From contig JBAZEY010000001.1 of the NCBI GenBank assembly GCA_041653675.1, positions 98 through 64,097 on the forward strand: DNA of 64,000 nt, written 5' to 3'. The stretch is from Patescibacteria group bacterium (GTDB lineage: Bacteria; Patescibacteriota; Patescibacteriia; XYB2-FULL-38-15). A program made the position numbers and the translations under genes. The number at the start of each line of letters is the position of its first letter. Position 1 is the first letter of the stretch. The notes under the pieces are model-generated. The model saw only the letters and a program-made list of their open reading frames with translations. It had not been told where the DNA came from and did no database searches. This document shows, one piece after another, positions 1 to 10,122 of the stretch.

Positions 1-3000
1 TTATTACGGCGCGGACGCGAAGAGATATGTTTTCCCATATCAGGCTTCTTATGCGTCATGGTATGGCTCCACCTTTGGTGCTGTCACCACTATGACCGAC
101 GCAGATTTAATTGCCATTCCTTTCGGCGGTAACGTGACTGTTCGCCCGGGCAAATTAGCCCAGGTCGTCAGCATGGACAGCCCTTGGATGGTAATGGATC
201 CTAAAGTTTACGCCGTAGAAAAAGACAATGTTCTCCGCTGGGTTAAAACCGCGGACGTCGCTGTCGCTATCTTTGGCGCGACTTGGGAATCACAGATTGT
301 CGCTATTCCAGAAGCGCTCCTCACCAATTACACGATTGGCGCGGAAATCAACGCTGCTGGAGACTACACTTTAGCCACTCAACAGGCCGTTGCCTCAATC
401 AATGAGTGCAAAGGTTTGACCGGCGTTTCCGGAACGGGCGGCTTATCAGTTGCTTTAGCTTCAGACACTCCGGCAGCCGCTTCAGTACCGAAAGGCGCGG
501 CTGACGTTTATTTTACCAAGGTTAACTTCACTGCTGGCGCGGCTGATGCAACAATCACCGGCCTTAAGGTGACACGATCTGGCCTTGGTATCGACGCGAA
601 CCTCGCTGCCATCAAACTTTTTGTTGACGGCGTACAGCGCGGCACTGCACAGAGTTTAGGTTCAATCCATCAGGCAACCTTTACTTTGTCTTCAAACCCG
701 ATCGTCGTCCCTGCCGGCACCACAAAAGCGGTTGTTTTAGCCGCTGATATTGCCGTCGCGACGGCGTTTGACCAACACGTCCTGGGCATTGCCCTCGCGT
801 CAGACATTACGACCACTGCGACCGTTTCCGGAACATTCCCGGTTAACGGCAGCACAATGTCTTTGGTCAACACTTCAATTGGCACTGCCGTGATTTCAGG
901 CGGTCCGTTAAACCCGGGCACCACGGGTGGCGATGTCGGAATTGATCCGGCTGCGGTCGGCTACAGATTCTCGCAGATTAGAATCGCCGCTGGTTCAGTT
1001 GAACCGCTCGTTGTTCAGCAGATCGTTGCCATCAGGAATGGCACGGCTGCTAGCACTGATGTCAAGAATATTGAACTCTTCAATGATACAGCTGGCACTT
1101 CTTTAGGTACTGTCACTGGTTTGGATTCAACCGGCCGAGCCGTGTTTTCAAACCTGAATTTGACAATAGCCAAAGGCGCCTATGTTGAATTATCAGTTAA
1201 AGCCGATATGGCTGGCGGTTCTGGCAGATCAATTAGCTTTGACGTTCATGACGGCACAGCGTTTGCCGGCATGATAAAGGGCGGAACCTTTAACTTTGGT
1301 ATTACTCCGACCTTTACCAATACGACTGCTTTCTGTAAAACCGCTGCTACCGACTACACTTGTCAAACACAGACCATCAATCAGGGCTACTTAACAGTTT
1401 CGAAGAGCGCTTCAGCTCCAGCCACTGGCAAAATCCCAACTGGCGGGACGAACGTTCCTTTGATGGCCTTTGATTTCACTGTGGCTGGTGAGCCGATCAA
1501 TGTCACTTCAACAGTGGTGACTTACACTACTGCTGATGGCACAGGCACTGCCGGTACTGGTATTAGAACAAATGTTACCAATTTCACATTGGTAACGGCT
1601 GCTGGTACCACTTTGGCTGGTCCAAAAGATGGCGATACCACTCACACAAGCGTGGGTGCGGAAACCTTGACCATCACTGATGGTTACACCTTGCCGGTTG
1701 GTACAACTGTGGTTTACGCGAAAGCGAACTTGTCTTCGTTGATGACTGCTGGCAACACCGTTGTTGTTACAATGGCAGCTGGCGCGATCACGGGCAAAGG
1801 CGCGAATTCCGCCAAAATTGTTCACACCACTTCAACTGGCGCAACCGTTCCTCCAGCATCTGCCATCACTGGCAACACGATGACTGTGCAGGGTCCGGTC
1901 TTAGCAATCACTACGGCTGCTTCCCCGGTTGTTGGCAGTATGGTGGTTAATGCTCAAGATCAGATTTTTGCTTATCTTGATCTTGATGCTTCAGGCGGCG
2001 GTGAAAACATTAGAGTCAGTTCCATTAAAGTGACTGACACTTGCGTTGCTGCGGCTGGTCCTGTGGCTTGTACTCTCTACACTGGTTTGAATAACCTTGA
2101 ACTCTGGGGCGATCCGGATAACACCGACGCCACAGTGGTCAACGAACGCTTAGCCACTTCCAACTCAACAGCGGTTCTCGGCGCTACTGTTACTTTCACC
2201 TTCCAAGTCCCGATCGTGGTTTCAAAAGCTGCGACATCGAGATTGACCTTGAAGGCTGATGTGACAACTGTTTATGATGAAGCATCAGAGGGAACTGCAG
2301 ACACTCATGCCTTTAAAGTTAATGCGGGTGGTGATGTCACAGCCATCGGCGCAGTCACCGGTAATACCGCCGCAAAGACGGTTTCTGGTGCTGGCCAGGC
2401 CCAAACACTCCGCGCGTCAGGAACTTTGAAGGTTGAAAAGGCGGCTGACATGCCGTCTGCCGTGCAGCTCGTTTCATCTTCCTTGGCCAATGAAGTGGCG
2501 AAGTACAAATTCACCACTCAATATGAGCCAGTTGATGTGACGACAATCAGTCTCTTCTGCGGTGACAACACCCAGGCTGGTACAAACTGCACCTTAGGCA
2601 ACATTGCGAAACTCTATGTCTACGCAAATGGCGTCTTGGTTGGTAACACTGCGGGTTACTCCTTGGATGCCACTGGCCTCGCTTCAGTTGTCTTGGATAG
2701 CGGAACTTTGGTCATTCCAAAGGACAGCTATTCAACGATCACCATTAAGGCTGATCTACCTGACAAGACTCAGGTGACGACTTCTTCAGGTGCTGATATC
2801 CAGATCGGTATTGAAGGAGCTGGCGCTGCTGGCACAACCCATAATGAAGATAACACCTGGGGCGATGGAGTTCATGTCAATAACGACTACTACATAATCG
2901 CGAATGGCCAATCTTCAGGCGCGATCATCGACATGAATACCATCAACAGTTTGGGCACTACGGCCGTTTCTCAGAACTTCGCTTCAAACCCCTTCAGTGC

Positions 3001-3625
3001 TCACAAAGGTATCTTGACGGTCAGCTTGAACGCTTCTTCTCCTTCCGGCACTCAAACCGCTGGTGAAAATAAGGAAGTCTTAAGACTGAACCTTACTGCC
3101 ACTGGCGATGATGTCACCATCAGAGAACTGGAATTGAAGAACGGCGGTACCGCGACTATCACCGGCACAGGAAGTTTAACTGTGAAGAGTGATGATCTCG
3201 GCACAACTTACGCCACAGTTACTGGCGCCAACTGTAATACTTACAGCGCGTCTGGTAACTTCTGCCTTGAGACTGCTACGACATTGTCAATCGGCTCAAC
3301 CGCCGGAACAGGCGCTTGTACTGCTGTAGCCGTGGCTGATGGCGTTGGCGATAAGTGCTCTGGATACTGGACTGCGGACGACAACCTCCAGGTTGCGGCT
3401 GGCACCACGAAAGTCATCAGAATCTTTGGTGACACGACTGGCGCTCTCTCGACCAAGACCTATCAGATGACTGTTGGTCCAGATGCCACGAGTATGACCA
3501 CCGTTTATGGTGTGACATATCGTGATAGCTCTGGTACTGATGTCGGCGATAGGATTGCTTCGACGTCAAGCTCGTATCCAGCGACCAAGAATCTGCCTCT
3601 CTCTGGCGGAAGCTTGAGCTTCTAA
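1..3625 (+). CDS. Giant secreted/surface repeat protein, 5'-truncated by window edge. The first ~140 aa in the window match the ~125-aa domain that is C-terminal in the four paralogs; a ~1050-aa Thr/Gly/Ala-rich beta-repeat region follows.
   Basis: Open frame 2 runs from base 2 with no stop until 3625. Residues YYGADAKRYVFP...VRPGKLAQVVSMDSPWMVMDPKVYAV align with the C-terminal domains at 6366-6833, 9521-10102, 12601-13181 and 14770-15234. A terminator follows at 3652. Confidence 0.7.
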   Translation, partial: YYGADAKRYVFPYQASYASWYGSTFGAVTTMTDADLIAIPFGGNVTVRPGKLAQVVSMDSPWMVMDPKVYAVEKDNVLRWVKTADVAVAIFGATWESQIVAIPEALLTNYTIGAEINAAGDYTLATQQAVASINECKGLTGVSGTGGLSVALASDTPAAASVPKGAADVYFTKVNFTAGAADATITGLKVTRSGLGIDANLAAIKLFVDGVQRGTAQSLGSIHQATFTLSSNPIVVPAGTTKAVVLAADIAVATAFDQHVLGIALASDITTTATVSGTFPVNGSTMSLVNTSIGTAVISGGPLNPGTTGGDVGIDPAAVGYRFSQIRIAAGSVEPLVVQQIVAIRNGTAASTDVKNIELFNDTAGTSLGTVTGLDSTGRAVFSNLNLTIAKGAYVELSVKADMAGGSGRSISFDVHDGTAFAGMIKGGTFNFGITPTFTNTTAFCKTAATDYTCQTQTINQGYLTVSKSASAPATGKIPTGGTNVPLMAFDFTVAGEPINVTSTVVTYTTADGTGTAGTGIRTNVTNFTLVTAAGTTLAGPKDGDTTHTSVGAETLTITDGYTLPVGTTVVYAKANLSSLMTAGNTVVVTMAAGAITGKGANSAKIVHTTSTGATVPPASAITGNTMTVQGPVLAITTAASPVVGSMVVNAQDQIFAYLDLDASGGGENIRVSSIKVTDTCVAAAGPVACTLYTGLNNLELWGDPDNTDATVVNERLATSNSTAVLGATVTFTFQVPIVVSKAATSRLTLKADVTTVYDEASEGTADTHAFKVNAGGDVTAIGAVTGNTAAKTVSGAGQAQTLRASGTLKVEKAADMPSAVQLVSSSLANEVAKYKFTTQYEPVDVTTISLFCGDNTQAGTNCTLGNIAKLYVYANGVLVGNTAGYSLDATGLASVVLDSGTLVIPKDSYSTITIKADLPDKTQVTTSSGADIQIGIEGAGAAGTTHNEDNTWGDGVHVNNDYYIIANGQSSGAIIDMNTINSLGTTAVSQNFASNPFSAHKGILTVSLNASSPSGTQTAGENKEVLRLNLTATGDDVTIRELELKNGGTATITGTGSLTVKSDDLGTTYATVTGANCNTYSASGNFCLETATTLSIGSTAGTGACTAVAVADGVGDKCSGYWTADDNLQVAAGTTKVIRIFGDTTGALSTKTYQMTVGPDATSMTTVYGVTYRDSSGTDVGDRIASTSSSYPATKNLPLSGGSLSF

Positions 3626-3651
3626 TCTCTGAATTCGTTGATATAGAAAAA

Positions 3652-3687
3652 AGCAGGGCGCCCTCTCGGCGCCCTGCTTTGATTTTG
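3652..3687 (+). terminator. Rho-independent terminator (stem agcagggcgcc/ggcgccctgct followed by TTTGATTTT)
   Basis: Perfect 11-bp GC-rich stem with a 5-nt loop and a T-run, immediately after the stop at 3625. Confidence 0.7.
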
Positions 3688-3704
3688 TGGTAAAATAAAA
3701 TTGT

Positions 3705-3763
3705 CCCCGACTAAAGTCGGGACTCCGGCGAACGATTTGGACTCCTCACTTTAGTGAGGGTTG
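3705..3763. repeat. REP-like hairpin pair upstream of the RAYT gene (cccgac-TAAA-gtcggg + gactcc; cctcac-TTTA-gtgagg + gttg)
   Basis: Two 6-bp-stem, 4-nt-loop palindromes with a conserved GACTCC tail; the same units recur at 4311-4450. Confidence 0.7.
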
Positions 3764-3776
3764 AACACAGTAATAT

Positions 3777-4310
3777 ATGCCATACAGAGAATACCATCCG
3801 CCGCATCTATATTTTGATCAAACAATTTATTTTATAACTTGTCGCACAGTAAATAAAGAAAATTTTTTTGCAACCGATGCGCATAAGAATGTTTTATATT
3901 CCTGTCTAAGGACAGGACTCCAAAATTTTAATATTCCGATTTACGCTTTTGTTATTTTGGATAACCATTATCACTTGTTAATAAAAATACAAAAAGCCGG
4001 AGATTTGCCCCTATTTATTAAATATCTTAATGGTAAAAGTTCTTTTGAATTAAATAAATCGGAGAACGAACAGGGCCGGAAAATTTGGTACCAATATTTT
4101 GATCACACAATCCGCGACGAAGCTGATTTTTGGAAACATTTTAATTACATTCATCAAAATCCGGTAAAACACGGGTTCTGTAAAAATTTGAGGGAAGTTT
4201 TTGGTTATCCCTTTTCAAGCGCGAAAAGTTGGAGTAAAATAAAAGGAGAGGAATGGTTTGATTCTTGTTTTGAGTTGTATCCGATTGTTGATTTTACCGC
4301 GGGAGAATAA
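3777..4310 (+). CDS. REP-associated tyrosine transposase (RAYT; IS200/IS605 TnpA-like Y1 HUH enzyme)
   Basis: HUH motif HYHLL; C-terminal catalytic-Tyr region KIWYQYFDHTIRDEADFWKHFNYIHQNPVKHGF...YPFSS matches the TnpA_REP/Y1 transposase signature (IWQ..F.D..I....YI..NPV..G.V....W.YSS); flanked by REPs. Confidence 0.75.
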   Translation: MPYREYHPPHLYFDQTIYFITCRTVNKENFFATDAHKNVLYSCLRTGLQNFNIPIYAFVILDNHYHLLIKIQKAGDLPLFIKYLNGKSSFELNKSENEQGRKIWYQYFDHTIRDEADFWKHFNYIHQNPVKHGFCKNLREVFGYPFSSAKSWSKIKGEEWFDSCFELYPIVDFTAGE

Positions 4311-4450
4311 CCCCGACTAAAGTCGGAACTCCGCAGTCTCTCGGACTCCTCACTTTAGTGAGGGTTGGATCTACCCCGACTAAAGTCGGAACTCCAAATT
4401 TAATAATTTATTTAAAATTAAATTAAGTACCTGTCTAAAGACAGGACTCC
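4311..4450. repeat. Cluster of four REP-like hairpins (two cccgac/gtcgga units, one cctcac/gtgagg unit, one cctgtc/gacagg unit), each with a GACTCC/GAACTCC tail
   Basis: Hairpins at 4311-4332, 4343-4368, 4374-4395 and 4430-4450. All have a 6-bp stem and TAAA/TTTA loop; the last ends 9 nt before the ATG at 4460. Confidence 0.7.
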
Positions 4451-4459
4451 AAAAAACCT

Positions 4460-5128
4460 ATGACCAAAAAATTGAAAATTATTTTGATCGTCGTCGTTTT
4501 TATTTTAATCGCCGGCGGACTTCTCGTCTGGAAAACTTGGAATTGGCAAGGAAAGATGGGGGATTTAAGAAGTTATGTTACTTCCTTATTTTCTGGAGAA
4601 AAAGTAGAAGAATTACCGGCCGATGTTAAAGCGGCCTATGAAGCCTTGAAAAATGATCCGTCAAATACCAGCGCTTATATAAAAATTGCCGCTTGGAAAC
4701 GGGACCAAGGCCAATTGGCGGACGCGATTAAACTTTATGAATCAGCCTTAGAAGTGAAACCAGACGACACTTTGCTTTTAATGAATAGCGCCGAACTTTA
4801 TACGAGAAACGAGCAATATGCCGAGGCCGCGGGAGCGTATGTGAAAGTCATGGAAAGCAACCCGAAGTGGCTTGCCGCCTATCGCAGTTTAGCCGATCTT
4901 TATCGCTACCAAATGCCGGAAAGAAAAATTGAAATTCCGAGCATTTTAAAAAGGGGACTGGAAGCAAATTCGGAAAATGAAATTTATTTTGTCGCGCCGC
5001 TTGCCATTTATTACAAAGATTTCGGACCGGAAGACGAAGCGATTCGCTGGTACGAGCGGCTGCTTGAACTTGAACCCGGAAATCTCACGGCACAGAAAGA
5101 GTTGGAAGAATTAAAAAATAAACAATAA
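4460..5128 (+). CDS. TPR-repeat protein with N-terminal transmembrane anchor
   Basis: N-terminal hydrophobic helix ILIVVVFILIAGGLLVW followed by repeated 34-aa Ala/Tyr/Leu-rich TPR-like units (AYIKIAAWKRDQGQLADAIKLYESALEVKPDD...). Confidence 0.6.
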   Translation: MTKKLKIILIVVVFILIAGGLLVWKTWNWQGKMGDLRSYVTSLFSGEKVEELPADVKAAYEALKNDPSNTSAYIKIAAWKRDQGQLADAIKLYESALEVKPDDTLLLMNSAELYTRNEQYAEAAGAYVKVMESNPKWLAAYRSLADLYRYQMPERKIEIPSILKRGLEANSENEIYFVAPLAIYYKDFGPEDEAIRWYERLLELEPGNLTAQKELEELKNKQ

Positions 5129-5144
5129 ATAACGGTTAAAAATT

Positions 5145-6833
5145 ATGAAAAAAATCGTCTTCGCTCTGATTTTTCTTTTAACTATTCCTTGGATTCCGGT
5201 AGGAGCCGCGGAAACTATTACCGTCACGAATACTGGCGCGCCGGCCGTGATTTTCTATCCTTCAGAGTTTGATAAATTAGTTATGGATTTTACAATCGCG
5301 CGAACCGACGGAACAGCTGATGTTTTAAACGCCCTGACTTTGCAAAACGACGGCACGGCCTGGGGTTGGGATATTTCTAAAGTTGTTGTTTGGGCTGATG
5401 CCGGAGAGGCTGGCTTTCAGGGAATGGCGGTTGACGAAAAATTGGGCGAAGCAGTGCGCTACGAAACTGGCGGTTACTGGTATTTATCAGGATTGCAAAA
5501 AGCTGTGCCTGCATCCGGCCTTCGGATTTTTGTGAGTATTGAAACCGGATCAAAAGCCGTGATTACAGCCAACAGATCGGTCCAAATGAAAGTGCCTCTT
5601 CTTATTGACGGCGGAACGATTGGCCGGTTTGACCTCGGCGATTCGGGTTTATTTTTAGCCGGAGCCACTGGCACCGCGAGTGGAGTTGTAAATCCTTCAG
5701 CCCAGACCATCTGGGTTTCAAATTATGACACGAGCGCGCCCAAAACCGTGGTTACATCTCCCTCGGCCGGAACGATTATCACCACTTCAACTTTCAAAAT
5801 TACCGGCGTGGCGCGCGATCAAGGCGGTTCAACTTTGGCAACGCTTCAAATTCAAATTAACTCTGGGAGTACGGCCGGTTCTTGGGCAGATGTGACAAAT
5901 ACTGGAACAAATTATTCAACCTGGGAATATAATTGGACAAATATTGCCGACGGAACTTACACAATTAAAACGCAAGGCGCCGACTGGCTCGGCAATTCTG
6001 AAACAATCGGGCAGGGGACTACCGTAACAGTTGACCAAACCGCGACAACTTCGGCCTCCGCTTCTGCTTCCACGGTTTCCGCGACGCCCGCCACTCTTCC
6101 GGCCGACGGTTCAACCAGAACGTTTGTCAGCGTACTAGTTAAAAATTTAGTGGGCAGCGCACTTTCCGGAAAAACAGTTTCTTTAGTTTCCGATCGCTCA
6201 ACCGATAACATTATAGCTACCAAAGAAATAACTGGCGTGGACGGCCTGGCCACTTTTGAAGTAACGGGAACTGCGACCGGAGTTTCAACTTTGACCGCGA
6301 CAGTCGGCATCGTGACTTTAGACCAAAAACCGACTTTAACTTTTACCGCCGTTGCTTTTCACGCGGGAGATTTAATTAAAGGAACTGCGAGCACGGCCGT
6401 TTATTATTACGCAGATAACGGCAGAAGATATATTTTTCCGACCGCGGCGATTTATTCATCTTGGTTTACTGGTTTTTCTTCCATTAAAACAATCCCCGAC
6501 GCGGACCTCGCCGCCGTACCGACCTCCGGCAATGTTACTGTGCGGCCCGGAAAGTTGGTCCAGGTTGTCAGTATGGATACGCCCTGGCGCGTGATGGATC
6601 CGAAAGTTTACGCCGTGAGCCGCGGGGGAGTCTTGCGCTGGGTCAAAACCGCCGACGCGGCAAGCGCGATTTTTGGCACGGAATGGGAGAAGAGTATTGT
6701 CGCCGTGCCAGAGGTGTTTGTTACAAATTATAATTACGGAGCTGATATCAACATTGCCACGGATTACAATTTAGCGGCTGAGCAGGCGGTGGCAACAATT
6801 GACGAAGATAAAAGTGCGAGGGTGACGGATTAA
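5145..6833 (+). CDS. Secreted surface protein: signal peptide, invasin-type Ig domain (Big_1-like), shared C-terminal ~125-aa domain
   Basis: Signal peptide MKKIVFALIFLLTIPWIPVGAAE. The segment SVSATPATLPADGST...SGKTVSLVSDR...TGVDGLATFEVTGTATGVSTLTATV resembles Big_1. C-terminal YYYADNGRRYIFP...VRPGKLVQVVSMDTPWRVMDPKVYAV is shared with the paralogs. Confidence 0.7.
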   Translation: MKKIVFALIFLLTIPWIPVGAAETITVTNTGAPAVIFYPSEFDKLVMDFTIARTDGTADVLNALTLQNDGTAWGWDISKVVVWADAGEAGFQGMAVDEKLGEAVRYETGGYWYLSGLQKAVPASGLRIFVSIETGSKAVITANRSVQMKVPLLIDGGTIGRFDLGDSGLFLAGATGTASGVVNPSAQTIWVSNYDTSAPKTVVTSPSAGTIITTSTFKITGVARDQGGSTLATLQIQINSGSTAGSWADVTNTGTNYSTWEYNWTNIADGTYTIKTQGADWLGNSETIGQGTTVTVDQTATTSASASASTVSATPATLPADGSTRTFVSVLVKNLVGSALSGKTVSLVSDRSTDNIIATKEITGVDGLATFEVTGTATGVSTLTATVGIVTLDQKPTLTFTAVAFHAGDLIKGTASTAVYYYADNGRRYIFPTAAIYSSWFTGFSSIKTIPDADLAAVPTSGNVTVRPGKLVQVVSMDTPWRVMDPKVYAVSRGGVLRWVKTADAASAIFGTEWEKSIVAVPEVFVTNYNYGADINIATDYNLAAEQAVATIDEDKSARVTD

Positions 6834-7243
6834 GAGATTGTGGATAAGTTTCCTCTTGACCAACTCAGTTTTTCGTGATAAAATAAAAGAAGATTAAATT
6901 AATATGAAGTTAACCGTGCTTGTCGTTTCGCAAACGAGCGAATTAGTTTTAAGTTTCTCTAGGGGGAGAGACTTGTTTAATGCTTAATTTTTAGGCATTT
7001 TTTTGTTGTTTAACTAAGAATTTAACTAATAAATTTAATTAAATATAAACCTTACCCTGCGAGAAATTTATTCTGCGGGGAATAAGCGCTACGGCGCTTG
7101 AAATTCCGTCGCTCGTCCCAAATGTTCCGCCGAGGTGGACCACTTGCGGACTCGCTAGGAATTATAAAAAAGGCGAATTTCGGAATTAATTGCGAATAAT
7201 TTTATTCGCAGTTCTCAATTCTTGGTTCGTCGTTTCAAAAAAT

Positions 7244-10102
7244 ATGGCAGAAAGAATCAAAAAAGGCTTTTTCAAAGTATTGCCATTGTCGGTGGTAGTA
7301 TTTTTAGTGTTAGGCTTGGTGGTGTCCTTCACCATGCCAACTCCTCAAAATCTCGGAGTAGAGCCTGTGAAAGCAGCGGTTAACGGCGGCACTACGTCGG
7401 CTCTCTGGCTATTGGACACAAACGCAACTCCAAACGGAAAAATTGATAGAATCACTTTTAGTGTCCTTAACACGAGCGGAGATGCTTGGGCTTTGAATGT
7501 TGCCTTACCTTACGGGTTAAGCGTAACCCAGGCTGGCAATGCGATAACTATTTCGGCAGTTACTATCACGTCGATCGCCACCGCCAATCCAATTACTGTA
7601 CAAGTTGATTTAGATGAAAGTGACGCAGACTTACTCGTGAATACTGACGGTGTTACCACGGGAGCCATAGAATTAATCTATACTCCAGTCCTCTTCGCAA
7701 ACTGCGGCACAACAGCCAGTATTTGTGATACCGATGAAGAAATGAATGTCATTGCGACCGGCGATACCGGAGCAACTGATACTGAAGTTGATAAAGCCGC
7801 GCCGTATATGACTTCCGCAACTTATGGGGATTCCGACGCGGGTGGCAACGTTGACCGAGTTACTTTTGTCTTTTCCGAATCAACAACCTGGACCGCTATG
7901 ACCGCCGCGGATTGGGCATTCGGAGCTGGCGACATCGCTATAACAGGAGATTTTCTTATTGGTGACTGTACTGCCTCTCCATCTATAACCTATGTCTGTA
8001 CTGATGCGGCTAACGCTCATATTACCTCAACCGCCGATAGAACCGGTAAGCAGACTTTAGCGGGTATTGAACCAACCTTTACTTATACCAATAGCACTAA
8101 CGACATCAATGATGGCGCTGCTGCTAATAACACTGCCACTTTTGGGCCAAACTCCTTGGCTGATGGCGCCGCGCCATATTTCCTCTCTGCTATCTATTCA
8201 GATTCTACCGCTGACGGAAAAGTTGACCGCGTGGCTTTTGCCTTTTCTGAAGTGACGACCTTTAACGCGATTACTGCCGCGGACTGGGCATTTGGCGGAG
8301 GTGACATTGTCCTTAGTGGCGACTTTGCTCTCGCTGAATGCGTGGGTTCAGCCACCCTCACCACCGTTACCTGCACTGACGCTGGCACGGGAACAGTTGA
8401 CGCCACTGCTTCAAGAACCGGCAAACAAACTTTAGCAGGCATTGAACCAACTATTACTTATACTAATGGCACTAATGACATTAGAGATGCCTCCTCCAAT
8501 AATACTGCCACTTTTGGTCCAACATCCTTGGTTGATGGCGCAGCTCCAGTCTTTGTGACCACCTCTCCGGCTGACGGCGCGACAGGCGTGGCCCTGGACG
8601 CGAGTATGGTTATTACTTTCTCCGAGACGATGACCGAGGCCTCTGTTACAGGCGCGATTACCAGAGCTCCAGCATTTACTCTCGGCACGGCATCATGGAA
8701 TGCGGCGAGCATAATTCTTACTTACTCCGCTCACGACGCTTTTGCCGGCATGCAGAACTACATCATCACCTTAGCCGGAACAATCGCCTCAGCGGCCGCA
8801 ACTGACGGAAATCTTGGGACTGGTCCGGTAGCAAATCCTTTTGACTTCACTACGGTCGCGGCTTCTAGCGGCGGAGGAGGCGCTGCAACATTACCCGCGT
8901 CTATCACTGTCACAACTCCGAACGGCGGCGAAATTTTGACCGGAGGAGGAACTTACAGCATCACCTGGTCGGCTGTTAGTAATACCGACCCGGTTAGCAT
9001 TTATTATTCAACTGACAGCGGCATAAATTTCCTGAACACCATAGCTACGGACGAAACGAACGATGGTTCTTACACCTGGACTGTTCCGAACGTTGCCACG
9101 AGCGCGGCCAAGGTTAAAGTAGTGAGCGGCAGTTTGAATGATATTTCTGATTCCAACTTTACTATCACTTACTCTACTTCCGCGGTTTCCACTTCCACCT
9201 CCACAGTTGTTGCTTCCCCGACTTCAGTGACGGCCAACGGAACTTCCAAATCAACTGTCACAGTCACCGTCAAAGACTCGAGTTCTAATCTGCTTTCTGG
9301 TAAAGTCGTGACCCTTGCTTCTTCTCGCGGCACTTCCGATACGGTTACGACCGTGACCGGCACAACCGGCACTAACGGCGTCGCCACTTTTGAAGTCAAA
9401 TCAAGCACGGCTGGCACTTCAACTTACACGGCTACTGCCGCGGGCGTAGTTCTAACTCAAACCGCTTCAGTCTCCTTTGCCGCTCCCGGCACGCCTGGTG
9501 AAACTCCAGTTTCTCTTAGTGTCGGAGACTTGATTAAGAGCAGTCTCAGCTCTTCGGTCTATTACTATGGTTCCGACGGCAAACGCCATGTCTTCCCGAA
9601 TGAAAAGACTTACAAGAGTTGGTATGTGGATTTCACCGGCATCAAAACTATTTCCGCCTCTCAACTCCAGGGCATCACTCTTGGCAAAAATGTCACGGTC
9701 CGTCCCGGCACGGTGCTCGTCAAAATCCAGACTGATCCCAAGGTCTACGCCGTTGAACCAGGCGGGCTCCTTCGCTGGGTTCCGACCGAAGCTCGTGCCA
9801 CCACTCTTTACGGCTCCTCTTGGGCCTCAAAGATCATTGATGTTCCAGTCATCTTCTGGGTTGACTACACCTTTGGCACTGACATTACGACCGACAAACA
9901 TCCGACCGGCGCCTTGGTCCAATATACTGGTTCAACTGAAAAATATTACATCCAGGGCACGGAAAAGCGTTTGATCTCCACTGCCGGCTTCACCGCCAAC
10001 AAATTCCAGTTGTCCAATGTCCTTACTGTCCCAACTACCATTACCTACACAACTGGCACGGCTCTCTCAGCCGAGGAGACAGCGCTATCTAGAATTTACT
10101 AG
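7244..10102 (+). CDS. Giant surface protein paralog. Modules: signal anchor, two tandem ~131-aa DGAAP modules, Big_5-like, compact beta-sandwich (GPI/Kre9-like pattern ITWS...YSTDSG...DGSYTWTVP), Big_1-like, shared C-terminal domain.
   Basis: The ORF track starts at 7190, but the conserved N-terminus MAERIKKGFFKVLPLSVVVFLVLGL, identical in pattern to the 10281 gene, begins at ATG 7244. Domain motifs are read directly from the translation. No SD. Confidence 0.7.
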   Translation: MAERIKKGFFKVLPLSVVVFLVLGLVVSFTMPTPQNLGVEPVKAAVNGGTTSALWLLDTNATPNGKIDRITFSVLNTSGDAWALNVALPYGLSVTQAGNAITISAVTITSIATANPITVQVDLDESDADLLVNTDGVTTGAIELIYTPVLFANCGTTASICDTDEEMNVIATGDTGATDTEVDKAAPYMTSATYGDSDAGGNVDRVTFVFSESTTWTAMTAADWAFGAGDIAITGDFLIGDCTASPSITYVCTDAANAHITSTADRTGKQTLAGIEPTFTYTNSTNDINDGAAANNTATFGPNSLADGAAPYFLSAIYSDSTADGKVDRVAFAFSEVTTFNAITAADWAFGGGDIVLSGDFALAECVGSATLTTVTCTDAGTGTVDATASRTGKQTLAGIEPTITYTNGTNDIRDASSNNTATFGPTSLVDGAAPVFVTTSPADGATGVALDASMVITFSETMTEASVTGAITRAPAFTLGTASWNAASIILTYSAHDAFAGMQNYIITLAGTIASAAATDGNLGTGPVANPFDFTTVAASSGGGGAATLPASITVTTPNGGEILTGGGTYSITWSAVSNTDPVSIYYSTDSGINFLNTIATDETNDGSYTWTVPNVATSAAKVKVVSGSLNDISDSNFTITYSTSAVSTSTSTVVASPTSVTANGTSKSTVTVTVKDSSSNLLSGKVVTLASSRGTSDTVTTVTGTTGTNGVATFEVKSSTAGTSTYTATAAGVVLTQTASVSFAAPGTPGETPVSLSVGDLIKSSLSSSVYYYGSDGKRHVFPNEKTYKSWYVDFTGIKTISASQLQGITLGKNVTVRPGTVLVKIQTDPKVYAVEPGGLLRWVPTEARATTLYGSSWASKIIDVPVIFWVDYTFGTDITTDKHPTGALVQYTGSTEKYYIQGTEKRLISTAGFTANKFQLSNVLTVPTTITYTTGTALSAEETALSRIY
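7778..8566 (+). repeat. Intragenic tandem duplication: two ~393-bp (131-aa) DGAAP modules
   Basis: DKAAPYMTSATYGDSDAGGNVDRVTFVFSE...RTGKQTLAGIEPTFTYTN and DGAAPYFLSAIYSDSTADGKVDRVAFAFSE...RTGKQTLAGIEPTITYTN are near-identical at the aa level. Confidence 0.7.
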
Positions 10103-10122
10103 AACTTAGATAGATTAGAAAA

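Follow-up and report, generated by a model that had tools for sequence, protein, structure and literature searches.

A putative REPtron with GGAG-tagged hairpins around a RAYT gene in a Patescibacterium

Work on repetitive extragenic palindromic (REP) elements and REP-associated tyrosine transposases (RAYTs) has so far been carried out almost entirely on Proteobacteria with large genomes. Here, a locus of this kind is described from a Patescibacteria group bacterium, where a RAYT gene stands amid short tagged hairpins in a 64,000-nt stretch of DNA (contig JBAZEY010000001.1, positions 98 to 64,097 of the forward strand, assembly GCA_041653675.1). This stretch is called the window, and window counts and negative results refer to these 64 kb. 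According to Ton-Hoang (2012, as cited in PMC3479197) and Messing (2012, PMC3479197), the REPtron of E. coli K-12 consists of TnpA_REP (a RAYT, PDB 4ER8) with flanking REPs and bacterial interspersed mosaic elements (BIMEs). In Pseudomonas, systems of a RAYT and REP doublets forming hairpins (REPINs) were described by Bertels and Rainey (2011, PMC3116915) and Bertels (2017, PMC5581495), and vertical, single-site inheritance is typical of RAYTs (PMC5581495). A survey of RAYTs found the genes enriched in large genomes and included no member of the Candidate Phyla Radiation (CPR) (PMC6006769).

The Patescibacterial locus is probably a REPtron as well, i.e. a RAYT gene that is single-copy and vertically inherited, along with the REP family cognate to it. 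It represents a known kind of system, for which neither this lineage nor a GGAG-type hairpin tag has been described previously. Full-text searches found no literature that connects RAYT or REP elements to genomes of CPR/Patescibacteria, the sole co-mention being the KEGG annotation of an archaeal gene. The original prediction, made from the letters of the window, reported a RAYT embedded in REP-like hairpins; its observation is confirmed, and its interpretation is supported and essentially right.

The RAYT protein and its hairpins

The RAYT gene (3777 to 4310, + strand) encodes a TnpA_REP-type Y1 HUH transposase of 177 aa. Its HUH motif lies in DNHYHLL (H64-Y65-H66, bases 3966-3974) and its catalytic tyrosine is Y124 (bases 4146-4148) in NYIHQNPVKHG, accompanied by N128 and H132, so that the HYHLL and YIHQNPVKHG motifs predicted for a 177-aa open reading frame (ORF) are both present. 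The Y1 transposase profile, on a match to which the prediction had been made to depend, is found with Pfam PF01797 (Y1_Tnp) at an E value of 2.7e-11 and 44.1 bits (cutoff 23) over residues 16-127. The proposed TnpA_REP/RAYT identity holds too, as the RAYT equivalog model of NCBIfam (REP_Tyr_transpos, NF047646) is passed with 106.5 bits (cutoff 80), while the IS200 model (transpos_IS200, NF033573) fails with 25.9 bits (cutoff 55). The sole match among solved structures is PDB 4ER8, the E. coli TnpA_REP (E 3.7e-8). In this alignment, H64/H66, Y124, N128 and H132 fall on E. coli H59/H61, Y115, N119 and H123, which are the metal-binding and catalytic residues of that enzyme (PMC3479197), and the same residues are conserved to 98-100% in a protein alignment of 121 homologues. 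The residues contacting the GTAG tag in E. coli are W94, Q95, E100, H101 and R104 (PMC6006769). At the corresponding positions, W104, H110 and R113 are kept, E100 is replaced by D109 and Q95 by Y105. As judged from its sequence, the protein belongs to the RAYT/TnpA_REP family.

Only one RAYT copy was found in the window by tblastn. Homologues are abundant in metagenomes, the named ones being mostly from Patescibacteria, and existing databases label such proteins as transposase or RayT. The protein itself is recorded as MFA5412919.1, 'MAG: transposase [Patescibacteria group bacterium]', from a metagenome-assembled genome (MAG), on a contig of 136 kb; the guess of a CPR-like host was thus correct.

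The REP unit has a G+C-rich, sequence-variable stem of 5-7 bp, a TAAA loop (TTTA in the complement) and an ACTCC tag directly 3' of the stem, so that the other strand reads 5'-GGAG, one T, then the stem. Orientation is defined here by the strand on which the hairpin precedes the ACTCC tag. Seven copies are present in the window, in the order A(+) B(-), RAYT with C(+) inside, A(+) B(-) A(+) C(+), and were scored with a covariance model built from 61 distinct copies, all from loci outside the window, and run on the window with filters off. Upstream of the gene, A1 (3705-3726, + strand; cccgacTAAAgtcgggACTCC) consists of the arms CCCCGAC and GTCGGG around TAAA, followed by ACTCC, and scores 39.3 bits (E 3.8e-8). 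B1 (3739-3760, - strand; GGACTCC, TCAC, TTTA and GTGAGGG as read on the + strand) scores 33.5 bits on the - strand; it is the inverted form of the element of A1, with the tag 5' on the + strand. Together, A1 and B1 make an inverted doublet, being 12 nt apart and 77% complementary.

Downstream, A2 (4311-4332, + strand; arms CCCCGAC and GTCGG around TAAA, then AACTCC; ccgacTAAAgtcggAACTCC; 32.1 bits) begins directly after the RAYT stop codon. It is followed by B2 (4343-4364, - strand; 32.1 bits), the same as B1 over 25 nt, and by A3 (4374-4395, + strand; 34.1 bits), which has the sequence of A2 (ccgacTAAAgtcggAACTCC). The alternating triplet A2-B2-A3 gives a good single-stranded DNA fold (z = -4.3). 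The last copy, C-ext (4429-4450, + strand; 37.4 bits), has the arms CCTGTC and GACAGG around TAAA, then ACTCC (cctgtcTAAAgacaggACTCC, 4430-4450), and ends with its tag at 4450, 9 nt ahead of the ATG at 4460 of a tetratricopeptide repeat (TPR) gene. The seventh copy, C-int (3899-3921, + strand; arms TCCTGTC and GACAGGA around TAAG, then CTCC; tcctgtcTAAGgacaggACTCC; 28.7 bits, E 2.4e-5), lies inside the RAYT gene; it shares its stem with C-ext, and 32 nt are 88% identical between them.

The six hairpins listed in the original prediction are all where it placed them, and the coordinates agree with its count of two upstream and four downstream, the last one 9 nt before the next gene start; the seventh, inside the ORF, had been overlooked. 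Its statement that GACTCC or GAACTCC comes after every hairpin holds for the cccgac and cctgtc copies. In the cctcac copies, GGACTCC precedes the hairpin and overlaps its 5' arm; on the minus strand these read cctcacTAAAgtgaggAGTCC, which makes them inverted copies of the same element.

Over the 64 kb, the covariance model finds exactly seven sites, all at 3702-4455, with 28.7-39.3 bits (E 2e-5 to 4e-8). No eighth REP, even a diverged one, was found with this model in the other 63 kb, the next match reaching 12.2 bits (E 0.56). The 21-mer GGACTCCTCACTTTAGTGAGG occurs twice in the window (3739-3759 and 4343-4363) against 0.00 expected, and the loose pattern TAAAGNNNNNACTCC, with at most 1 mismatch allowed, matches 12 times where 4.0 +/- 1.8 matches are expected, 7 of the 12 lying within 750 bp. 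Next, stem formation was assessed at all sites in the fetched loci that carry the loop with a tag at the proper distance, irrespective of any stem, the seeds of the collection scans being excluded. A stem of at least 5 bp is present at 78 of these 125 sites (62%) and many others are one mismatch short, compared to a chance rate of about 0.7% by our own estimate. At least 17 distinct stem sequences occur with the common loop and tag, and a control on reversed sequence gave 1 hit in 516 kb. A pair count on the hairpin alignment (97% paired, 6 of 6 pairs covarying) was discarded as circular, since the sequences had been selected for stem formation. Rfam gave nothing above threshold at the locus, and its weak matches cover the upstream terminator. 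GAGTTCC followed by a hairpin is reminiscent of a type I-E CRISPR repeat, but arrays and spacers are absent.

Orthologous loci and dispersal of the REPs

Orthologues were collected on contigs of twelve lineages with 56-100% protein identity, including the scan hits L033 and L039. REP hairpins adjoin the RAYT gene in all twelve. The order surface protein - RAYT - TPR is kept in each of the ten lineages with long enough contigs, down to 59% identity, and a Big_1 protein comes next after the TPR gene where annotated. Two lineages stand outside this set, one with other neighbours (L065) and one on a contig too short to tell (L066). Judging from these gene orders, the RAYT gene is a single-site, vertically inherited gene down to at least 59% identity.

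From lineage to lineage, the flanking REPs vary in number, order and stem. The window carries A B upstream and A B A C downstream, compared to A B A and A in L033, B A A A B and A B A in L039, and B A B and B A B A C in L004. In the RAYT clade at 56-75% identity, the stems are ctgcc, ctggc, cgccc and caccc, with loop and tag unchanged. CPR RAYTs at 48-52% identity (L068 and L069) have different and longer repeats on their flanks, which begin with GGAGT and end with ACTCC. Since these ends are kept where the repeats otherwise differ, the tag is apparently what changes least within the RAYT clade.

The junction between gene and repeats also varies. In L004 (10538-10555), L061 (2616-2629) and L070 (4324-4345), the final codons of the RAYT ORF, stop included, are overlapped by an inverted REP, and in the clade of the window a forward REP starts 1-3 nt past the RAYT stop. 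One genome can hold several stem types, because the short contig L022 (1699 nt, sample Ga0172379) carries both sets, cccgac/cctcac as in the window and caccc/ctggc as in the 66-73% clade. Three different RAYT orthologues (L033, L063 and L071) come from this sample.

Beyond the RAYT locus, the REPs are dispersed. In a JGI metagenome scan, made like the one below with a pattern that excluded the cctgtc stem type, 42 contigs carry the motif and only two of them a RAYT. The other 40 contigs (209 kb) hold 47 clusters, namely 16 single, 17 double, 12 triple and 2 quadruple ones. Neighbouring hairpins are inverted relative to each other in 43 of 47 pairs, with gaps of 17-18 nt when the tags point outward and of 24 or 46-47 nt when they point inward. 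These hairpins are mostly extragenic, with 31% lying in open frames of at least 120 aa versus 78% of random positions. As in the window, GC content is below 0.53 in 32 of the 40 contigs. One of them, L050, has three intergenic clusters in 14.6 kb and, by its malic enzyme, which is 72-74% identical to Portnoybacteria/Parcubacteria proteins, is Patescibacterial. The original prediction had held that the hairpins might be local terminators if they occurred at this locus alone; within the window they are indeed confined to it, whereas elsewhere they are dispersed over these RAYT-free contigs.

Off-locus copies also occur on the orthologous contigs. L004 has a B/A doublet at 16921-16965, 6.4 kb downstream of its RAYT, L061 one copy at 5154-5169, 2.5 kb downstream, and L067 two clusters at 1411-1528 and 2833-2941, 6-7 kb upstream. 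A strict scan of 82 kb of ortholog contigs found 2 sites (3 hairpins) away from the gene and missed the two L067 clusters, which have variant tags. Given such sparse off-locus sites, the REP family looks low- to moderate-copy in this RAYT clade.

A scan of GTDB representative genomes with CCCYSACTAAAGTSRGRASTCC gave nine loci. One is a solitary intergenic copy in a Patescibacterium (L018), the others being from Lentisphaerae (four contigs, one MAG, inverted doublets), Sumerlaeia, Blastocatellia and Balneolaceae. The cccacTAAAgtgggAACTCC or cccgacTAAAgtcgggACTCC architecture is seen in L010, L011 and L013-L015 (Lentisphaerae MAGs), L017 (Sumerlaeia), L016 (Blastocatellia) and L012 (Balneolaceae), and the inverted doublets of Lentisphaerae and Sumerlaeia read e.g. 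GGAGTTCCgccTTCAggcgg...CCCCCACTAAAGTGGGAACTCC. No RAYT was found by tblastn within the fetched flanks of the nine loci. The same hairpin architecture in other phyla suggests that the RAYT clade with a GGAG-type tag is far wider than the CPR.

The internal copy and the transcription context

C-int occupies RAYT codons 42-49 (SCLRTGLQ), in frame and upstream of the HUH motif. An insertion was ruled out as its origin, as the alignment of 121 proteins has no gap there; distant homologues carry unrelated residues of equal length at this position, and the amino-acid motif CLK(T/A)GL is restricted to a subclade down to about 56% identity. The stem is intact in 7 of the 12 orthologous lineages and the tag in 6. 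Both are intact in the window, L006/7, L004, L009, L061 and L066, and in L070 the stem is intact with a tag one base off; the copy is decayed in L033, L039, L063 and L065 and absent in L067. Between subclades, one compensated pair is seen (TGT/ACA to TGC/GCA), the synonymous Cys codon (TGT or TGC) going with the initial base of the Thr (ACA) or Ala (GCA) codon. Only two exceptions occur, and in both the hairpin is otherwise decayed. Such a compensatory change would favour an internal hairpin that is kept, which is suggestive rather than strong, because it is probably a single phylogenetic event.

The stem type of the internal copy is that of the external forward REPs in each lineage. In the window, both C-int and an external copy have the derived CTGTC/GACAG stem, and the external copy of L004 retains the older CTGCC. 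Because the stems match in this way, copying or gene conversion between internal and external sites may have taken place. C-int might further be functional, either as a site at which the enzyme binds or cleaves its own gene or transcript and so regulates itself, or as a protected 'master copy' that renews the external REPs. Retention of the stem through compensatory change and the match of internal and external stems favour such a role, which is nevertheless doubtful. If true, a functional C-int and the strict synteny would mean that a REP-RAYT replicator, self-contained and passed on vertically, is kept in a genome of about 1 Mb, which would run counter to the reported tie of RAYT genes with large genomes. 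The locus adds one more case of a transposase gene that contains a REP of its own family. As a phenomenon, an intragenic REP is not new, since tnpA_REP genes of subclass 2.4 have been reported to carry REPs inserted in frame between the HUH motif and the Tyr motif (PMC6006769); position and origin differ here.

The locus is preceded by an intrinsic terminator (3650-3680, + strand; 13-bp stem, then a T-run) of the upstream gene for a surface protein of 1177 aa; this terminator is not a member of the REP family. An extended -10-like box, TGGTAAAAT, read in the sequence at 3688-3696 (+ strand), stands directly before the first REP and is kept in orthologues (gattttgtggtaaaata in L004 and L006, gattttgtgataaaata in L009). 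A sigma-70 scan did not flag the TGGTAAAAT box, because there is no -35 match. As a promoter-like box precedes the first REP, the upstream REPs would sit in the 5' untranslated region of the RAYT transcript. A gattttgtggtaaaata box after the surface-protein gene terminator, like the extended -10 TGGTAAAAT, is found at window 3680-3697, and a related segment of about 90 nt follows other surface-protein genes (window 6836-6929; L004 13623-13716, 16693-16783 and 20402-20465). This type of box is probably a local promoter type. The REPs were also considered as terminators and rejected as such: in a terminator scan, two of them are flagged, both as read on the minus strand only, and T-runs are absent from all of them on the coding strand.

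This context bears on a different explanation, by which the hairpins are primarily regulatory elements of host RNA or DNA, acting e.g. in mRNA stabilisation, weak termination, occlusion of translation or protein binding, and are spread by slippage, recombination or gene conversion, and the RAYT is an inactive or otherwise-employed relic. All seven copies do lie in one transcription-unit-sized stretch between the terminator and the next gene, the upstream ones after the conserved TGGTAAAAT box, and the changes in array size look like local expansion and contraction. The last REP is close to the TPR start in the window (9 nt), L004 (6 nt), L061 (10 nt) and L067 (8 nt), but farther from it in L006 (31 nt) and L009 (about 60 nt). 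Moreover, the 3' arm of the inverted B copies (GTGAGGG or GTGAGGA) holds a Shine-Dalgarno-like GAGG 9-17 nt before the RAYT ATG, as seen at window 3754-3776, at L004 9986-10000 and on the reverse strand in L039, so that folding of the inverted REP could mask the RAYT ribosome-binding site. Roles of this kind are held by E. coli REPs as well (review PMC3733652). However, the intact catalytic residues, nearly invariant among the homologues, argue for an active enzyme, the presence of both orientations is unexpected for purely RNA-level elements, and there is no T-run behind the hairpins on the + strand. Loop and tag with free stems also co-occur with the RAYT clade, and the GGAGT/ACTCC ends outlast other changes of the repeats. 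A relic RAYT next to purely regulatory hairpins is therefore unlikely. Since regulatory roles and RAYT-driven spread are compatible with each other, secondary regulatory effects of the REPs are quite possible within a REPtron.

As to the surroundings, positions 1-16000 of the window hold a cluster of surface-protein genes with a GC content of 0.43-0.52 and no GC skew. At 16000-64000, GC content is about 0.40, the skew is strongly positive and almost every gene is on the + strand. Based on this skew and gene orientation, the + strand is probably the lagging-strand template. A module of about 100 aa (…GNVTVRPGKL.QVVSMD.PW.VMDPKVYAV…LRWVKTADAA.AIFG…) is encoded at 92-400, 6500-6830 and 14795-15019. 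The 1177-aa ORF starts with this module and the 562-aa Big_1 protein ends with it, and further copies occur in other surface proteins encoded in the cluster as well as in L004 and L061. In L004, from a close relative, small genes with 23S_rRNA_IVP or bAvd domains (5506-5856 and 13176-13523) lie amid the surface-protein genes and might belong to a diversity-generating retroelement as accessory genes; the corresponding part of the window shows no counterpart.

Weighing of the REPtron and comparison with known systems

By analogy with E. coli TnpA_REP and IS608 (PMC3479197), the RAYT would bind the folded hairpin and the adjacent single-stranded tag on transiently single-stranded DNA. It would cut nearby through Tyr124, giving a 5'-phosphotyrosine link, with the metal held by H64/H66, N128 and H132. 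Strand transfer and rejoining would then copy or rearrange REP units, mostly as inverted doublets or triplets, into intergenic DNA, and the RAYT gene itself would remain fixed in place through repeated cycles. Binding, cleavage and mobilisation by this RAYT are inferred from these relatives, and either REP strand could be the active one.

Several observations weigh against a REPtron. With 0 REPs in the 63 kb away from the locus (a rough 95% upper bound of about 48 per Mb), the family is at most low-copy in this organism. The RAYT-free contigs are not assignable to genomes that also hold this RAYT clade, and 8 of the 40 have a GC content of at least 0.53; since 7 of these 8 have a cccac stem like the Lentisphaerae hits, the eight are probably not CPR. 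Orthologous empty sites, which would show insertion directly, were not found when all REP-only contigs were compared with the window by blastn, only the REP locus matching. The tag is not uniform either. Its central base varies (ACTCC, AGTCC, ATTCC), and all cctcac copies of the window read GGACT, not GGAGT. The canonical tag of the GTAG super-family, 5' GT[AG]G at the hairpin foot, is absent (PMC3733652; PMC6006769), although non-GTAG REP-like repeats are already known in other subclasses (PMC6006769; PMC3733652). The canonical arrangement of REPs as short palindromes, mostly extragenic and in inverted clusters, is present.

The locus might also be an autonomous IS200/IS605 insertion sequence (IS) that transposes as a whole, the ORF being an ordinary TnpA with a Y1_Tnp fold and the same-orientation hairpins that bracket it, A1 at 3705 and A2/A3 at 4311 and 4374, being subterminal end hairpins in the geometry of IS608 ends (PMC3479197), but this is highly improbable given that the IS200 equivalog model stays below its cutoff where the RAYT model passes, that there is one gene copy in 64 kb, that ten lineages have identical neighbours down to 59% identity, which is not expected of an active IS, and that the hairpins occur in both orientations, in variable number and at many gene-free sites. 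IS200/IS605 elements (IS608, ISDra2) do share the catalytic fold and the recognition of a subterminal hairpin with a short single-stranded guide or tag. In contrast to the present locus, where the gene is fixed and only the hairpins are dispersed, they are multi-copy, horizontally transferred units that contain the gene.

A REPtron remains the likely explanation, and the E. coli REPtron is a close counterpart in active site and layout. Both have a single-copy Y1 HUH protein with the same HUH/Tyr/Asn/His active site and, on both gene flanks, short tagged hairpins in alternating orientation. In contrast to E. coli, the tag here is GGAG(T)/ACTCC and lies one base off the stem, compared to GTAG at the stem foot, and the stem is a perfect one of 5-7 bp with a fixed TAAA tetraloop, whereas that of E. 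coli is longer and imperfect. Only about a quarter of the aligned residues are identical to E. coli TnpA_REP, and Tyr replaces the GTAG-contact residue Q95 (PMC6006769). The host is also a Patescibacterium of roughly the 1-Mb class, with zero REPs in the rest of the window. The RAYT/REP/BIME architecture of the original prediction stands as far as a RAYT with alternating flanking hairpins at preferred spacings is concerned, whereas the BIME-specific motifs of E. coli are absent. BIME is an E. coli term, defined by alternating Y and Z REPs, defined internal motifs and sites for integration host factor or gyrase, and only the arrangement is alike here.

As in the Pseudomonas REPINs, REPs are dispersed as inverted doublets at preferred spacings, a single RAYT copy stays in a syntenic position, and the REPs next to the gene recur elsewhere. 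Unlike in Pseudomonas, where tens to hundreds of copies are counted per complete genome, the evidence here is at contig level and the density apparently low, and tag and loop differ.

Among the subclasses of Quentin et al. (2018, PMC6006769), the likeness to which is drawn from published descriptions, 2.5 is characterised by short REPs, a tag 1-2 nt from the stem and an Asp for E100. The short REP here, with tag, spacer and stem making 11 nt, falls in its published range of 10-13 nt, and D109 for E100 is the Asp of subclasses 2.5 and 2.7 (PMC6006769). Subclass 2.5 differs in its GT[AG]G tags and in its reported hosts, which are mostly Xanthomonads and Pseudomonads (PMC6006769). With subclass 2.4 (PMC6006769), the locus shares a REP copy within the transposase ORF that leaves the frame unbroken; unlike the insertions of 2.4 between the HUH and Tyr motifs, the copy here lies upstream of HUH and adds no residues.

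The locus does not overturn the current understanding of REP-RAYT systems. The natural tag variant, GGAG versus GTAG, is paired with a Gln-to-Tyr change at a tag-contact position and could be used to probe how tag or guide is read. The compact, well-defined REP with its TAAA tetraloop and GGAG-type tag is likewise a simple, searchable marker for intergenic repeats of the CPR. Compared to the systems described so far, the same architecture, a fixed single-copy gene with dispersed inverted doublets, is now seen in an ultra-small Patescibacterium.

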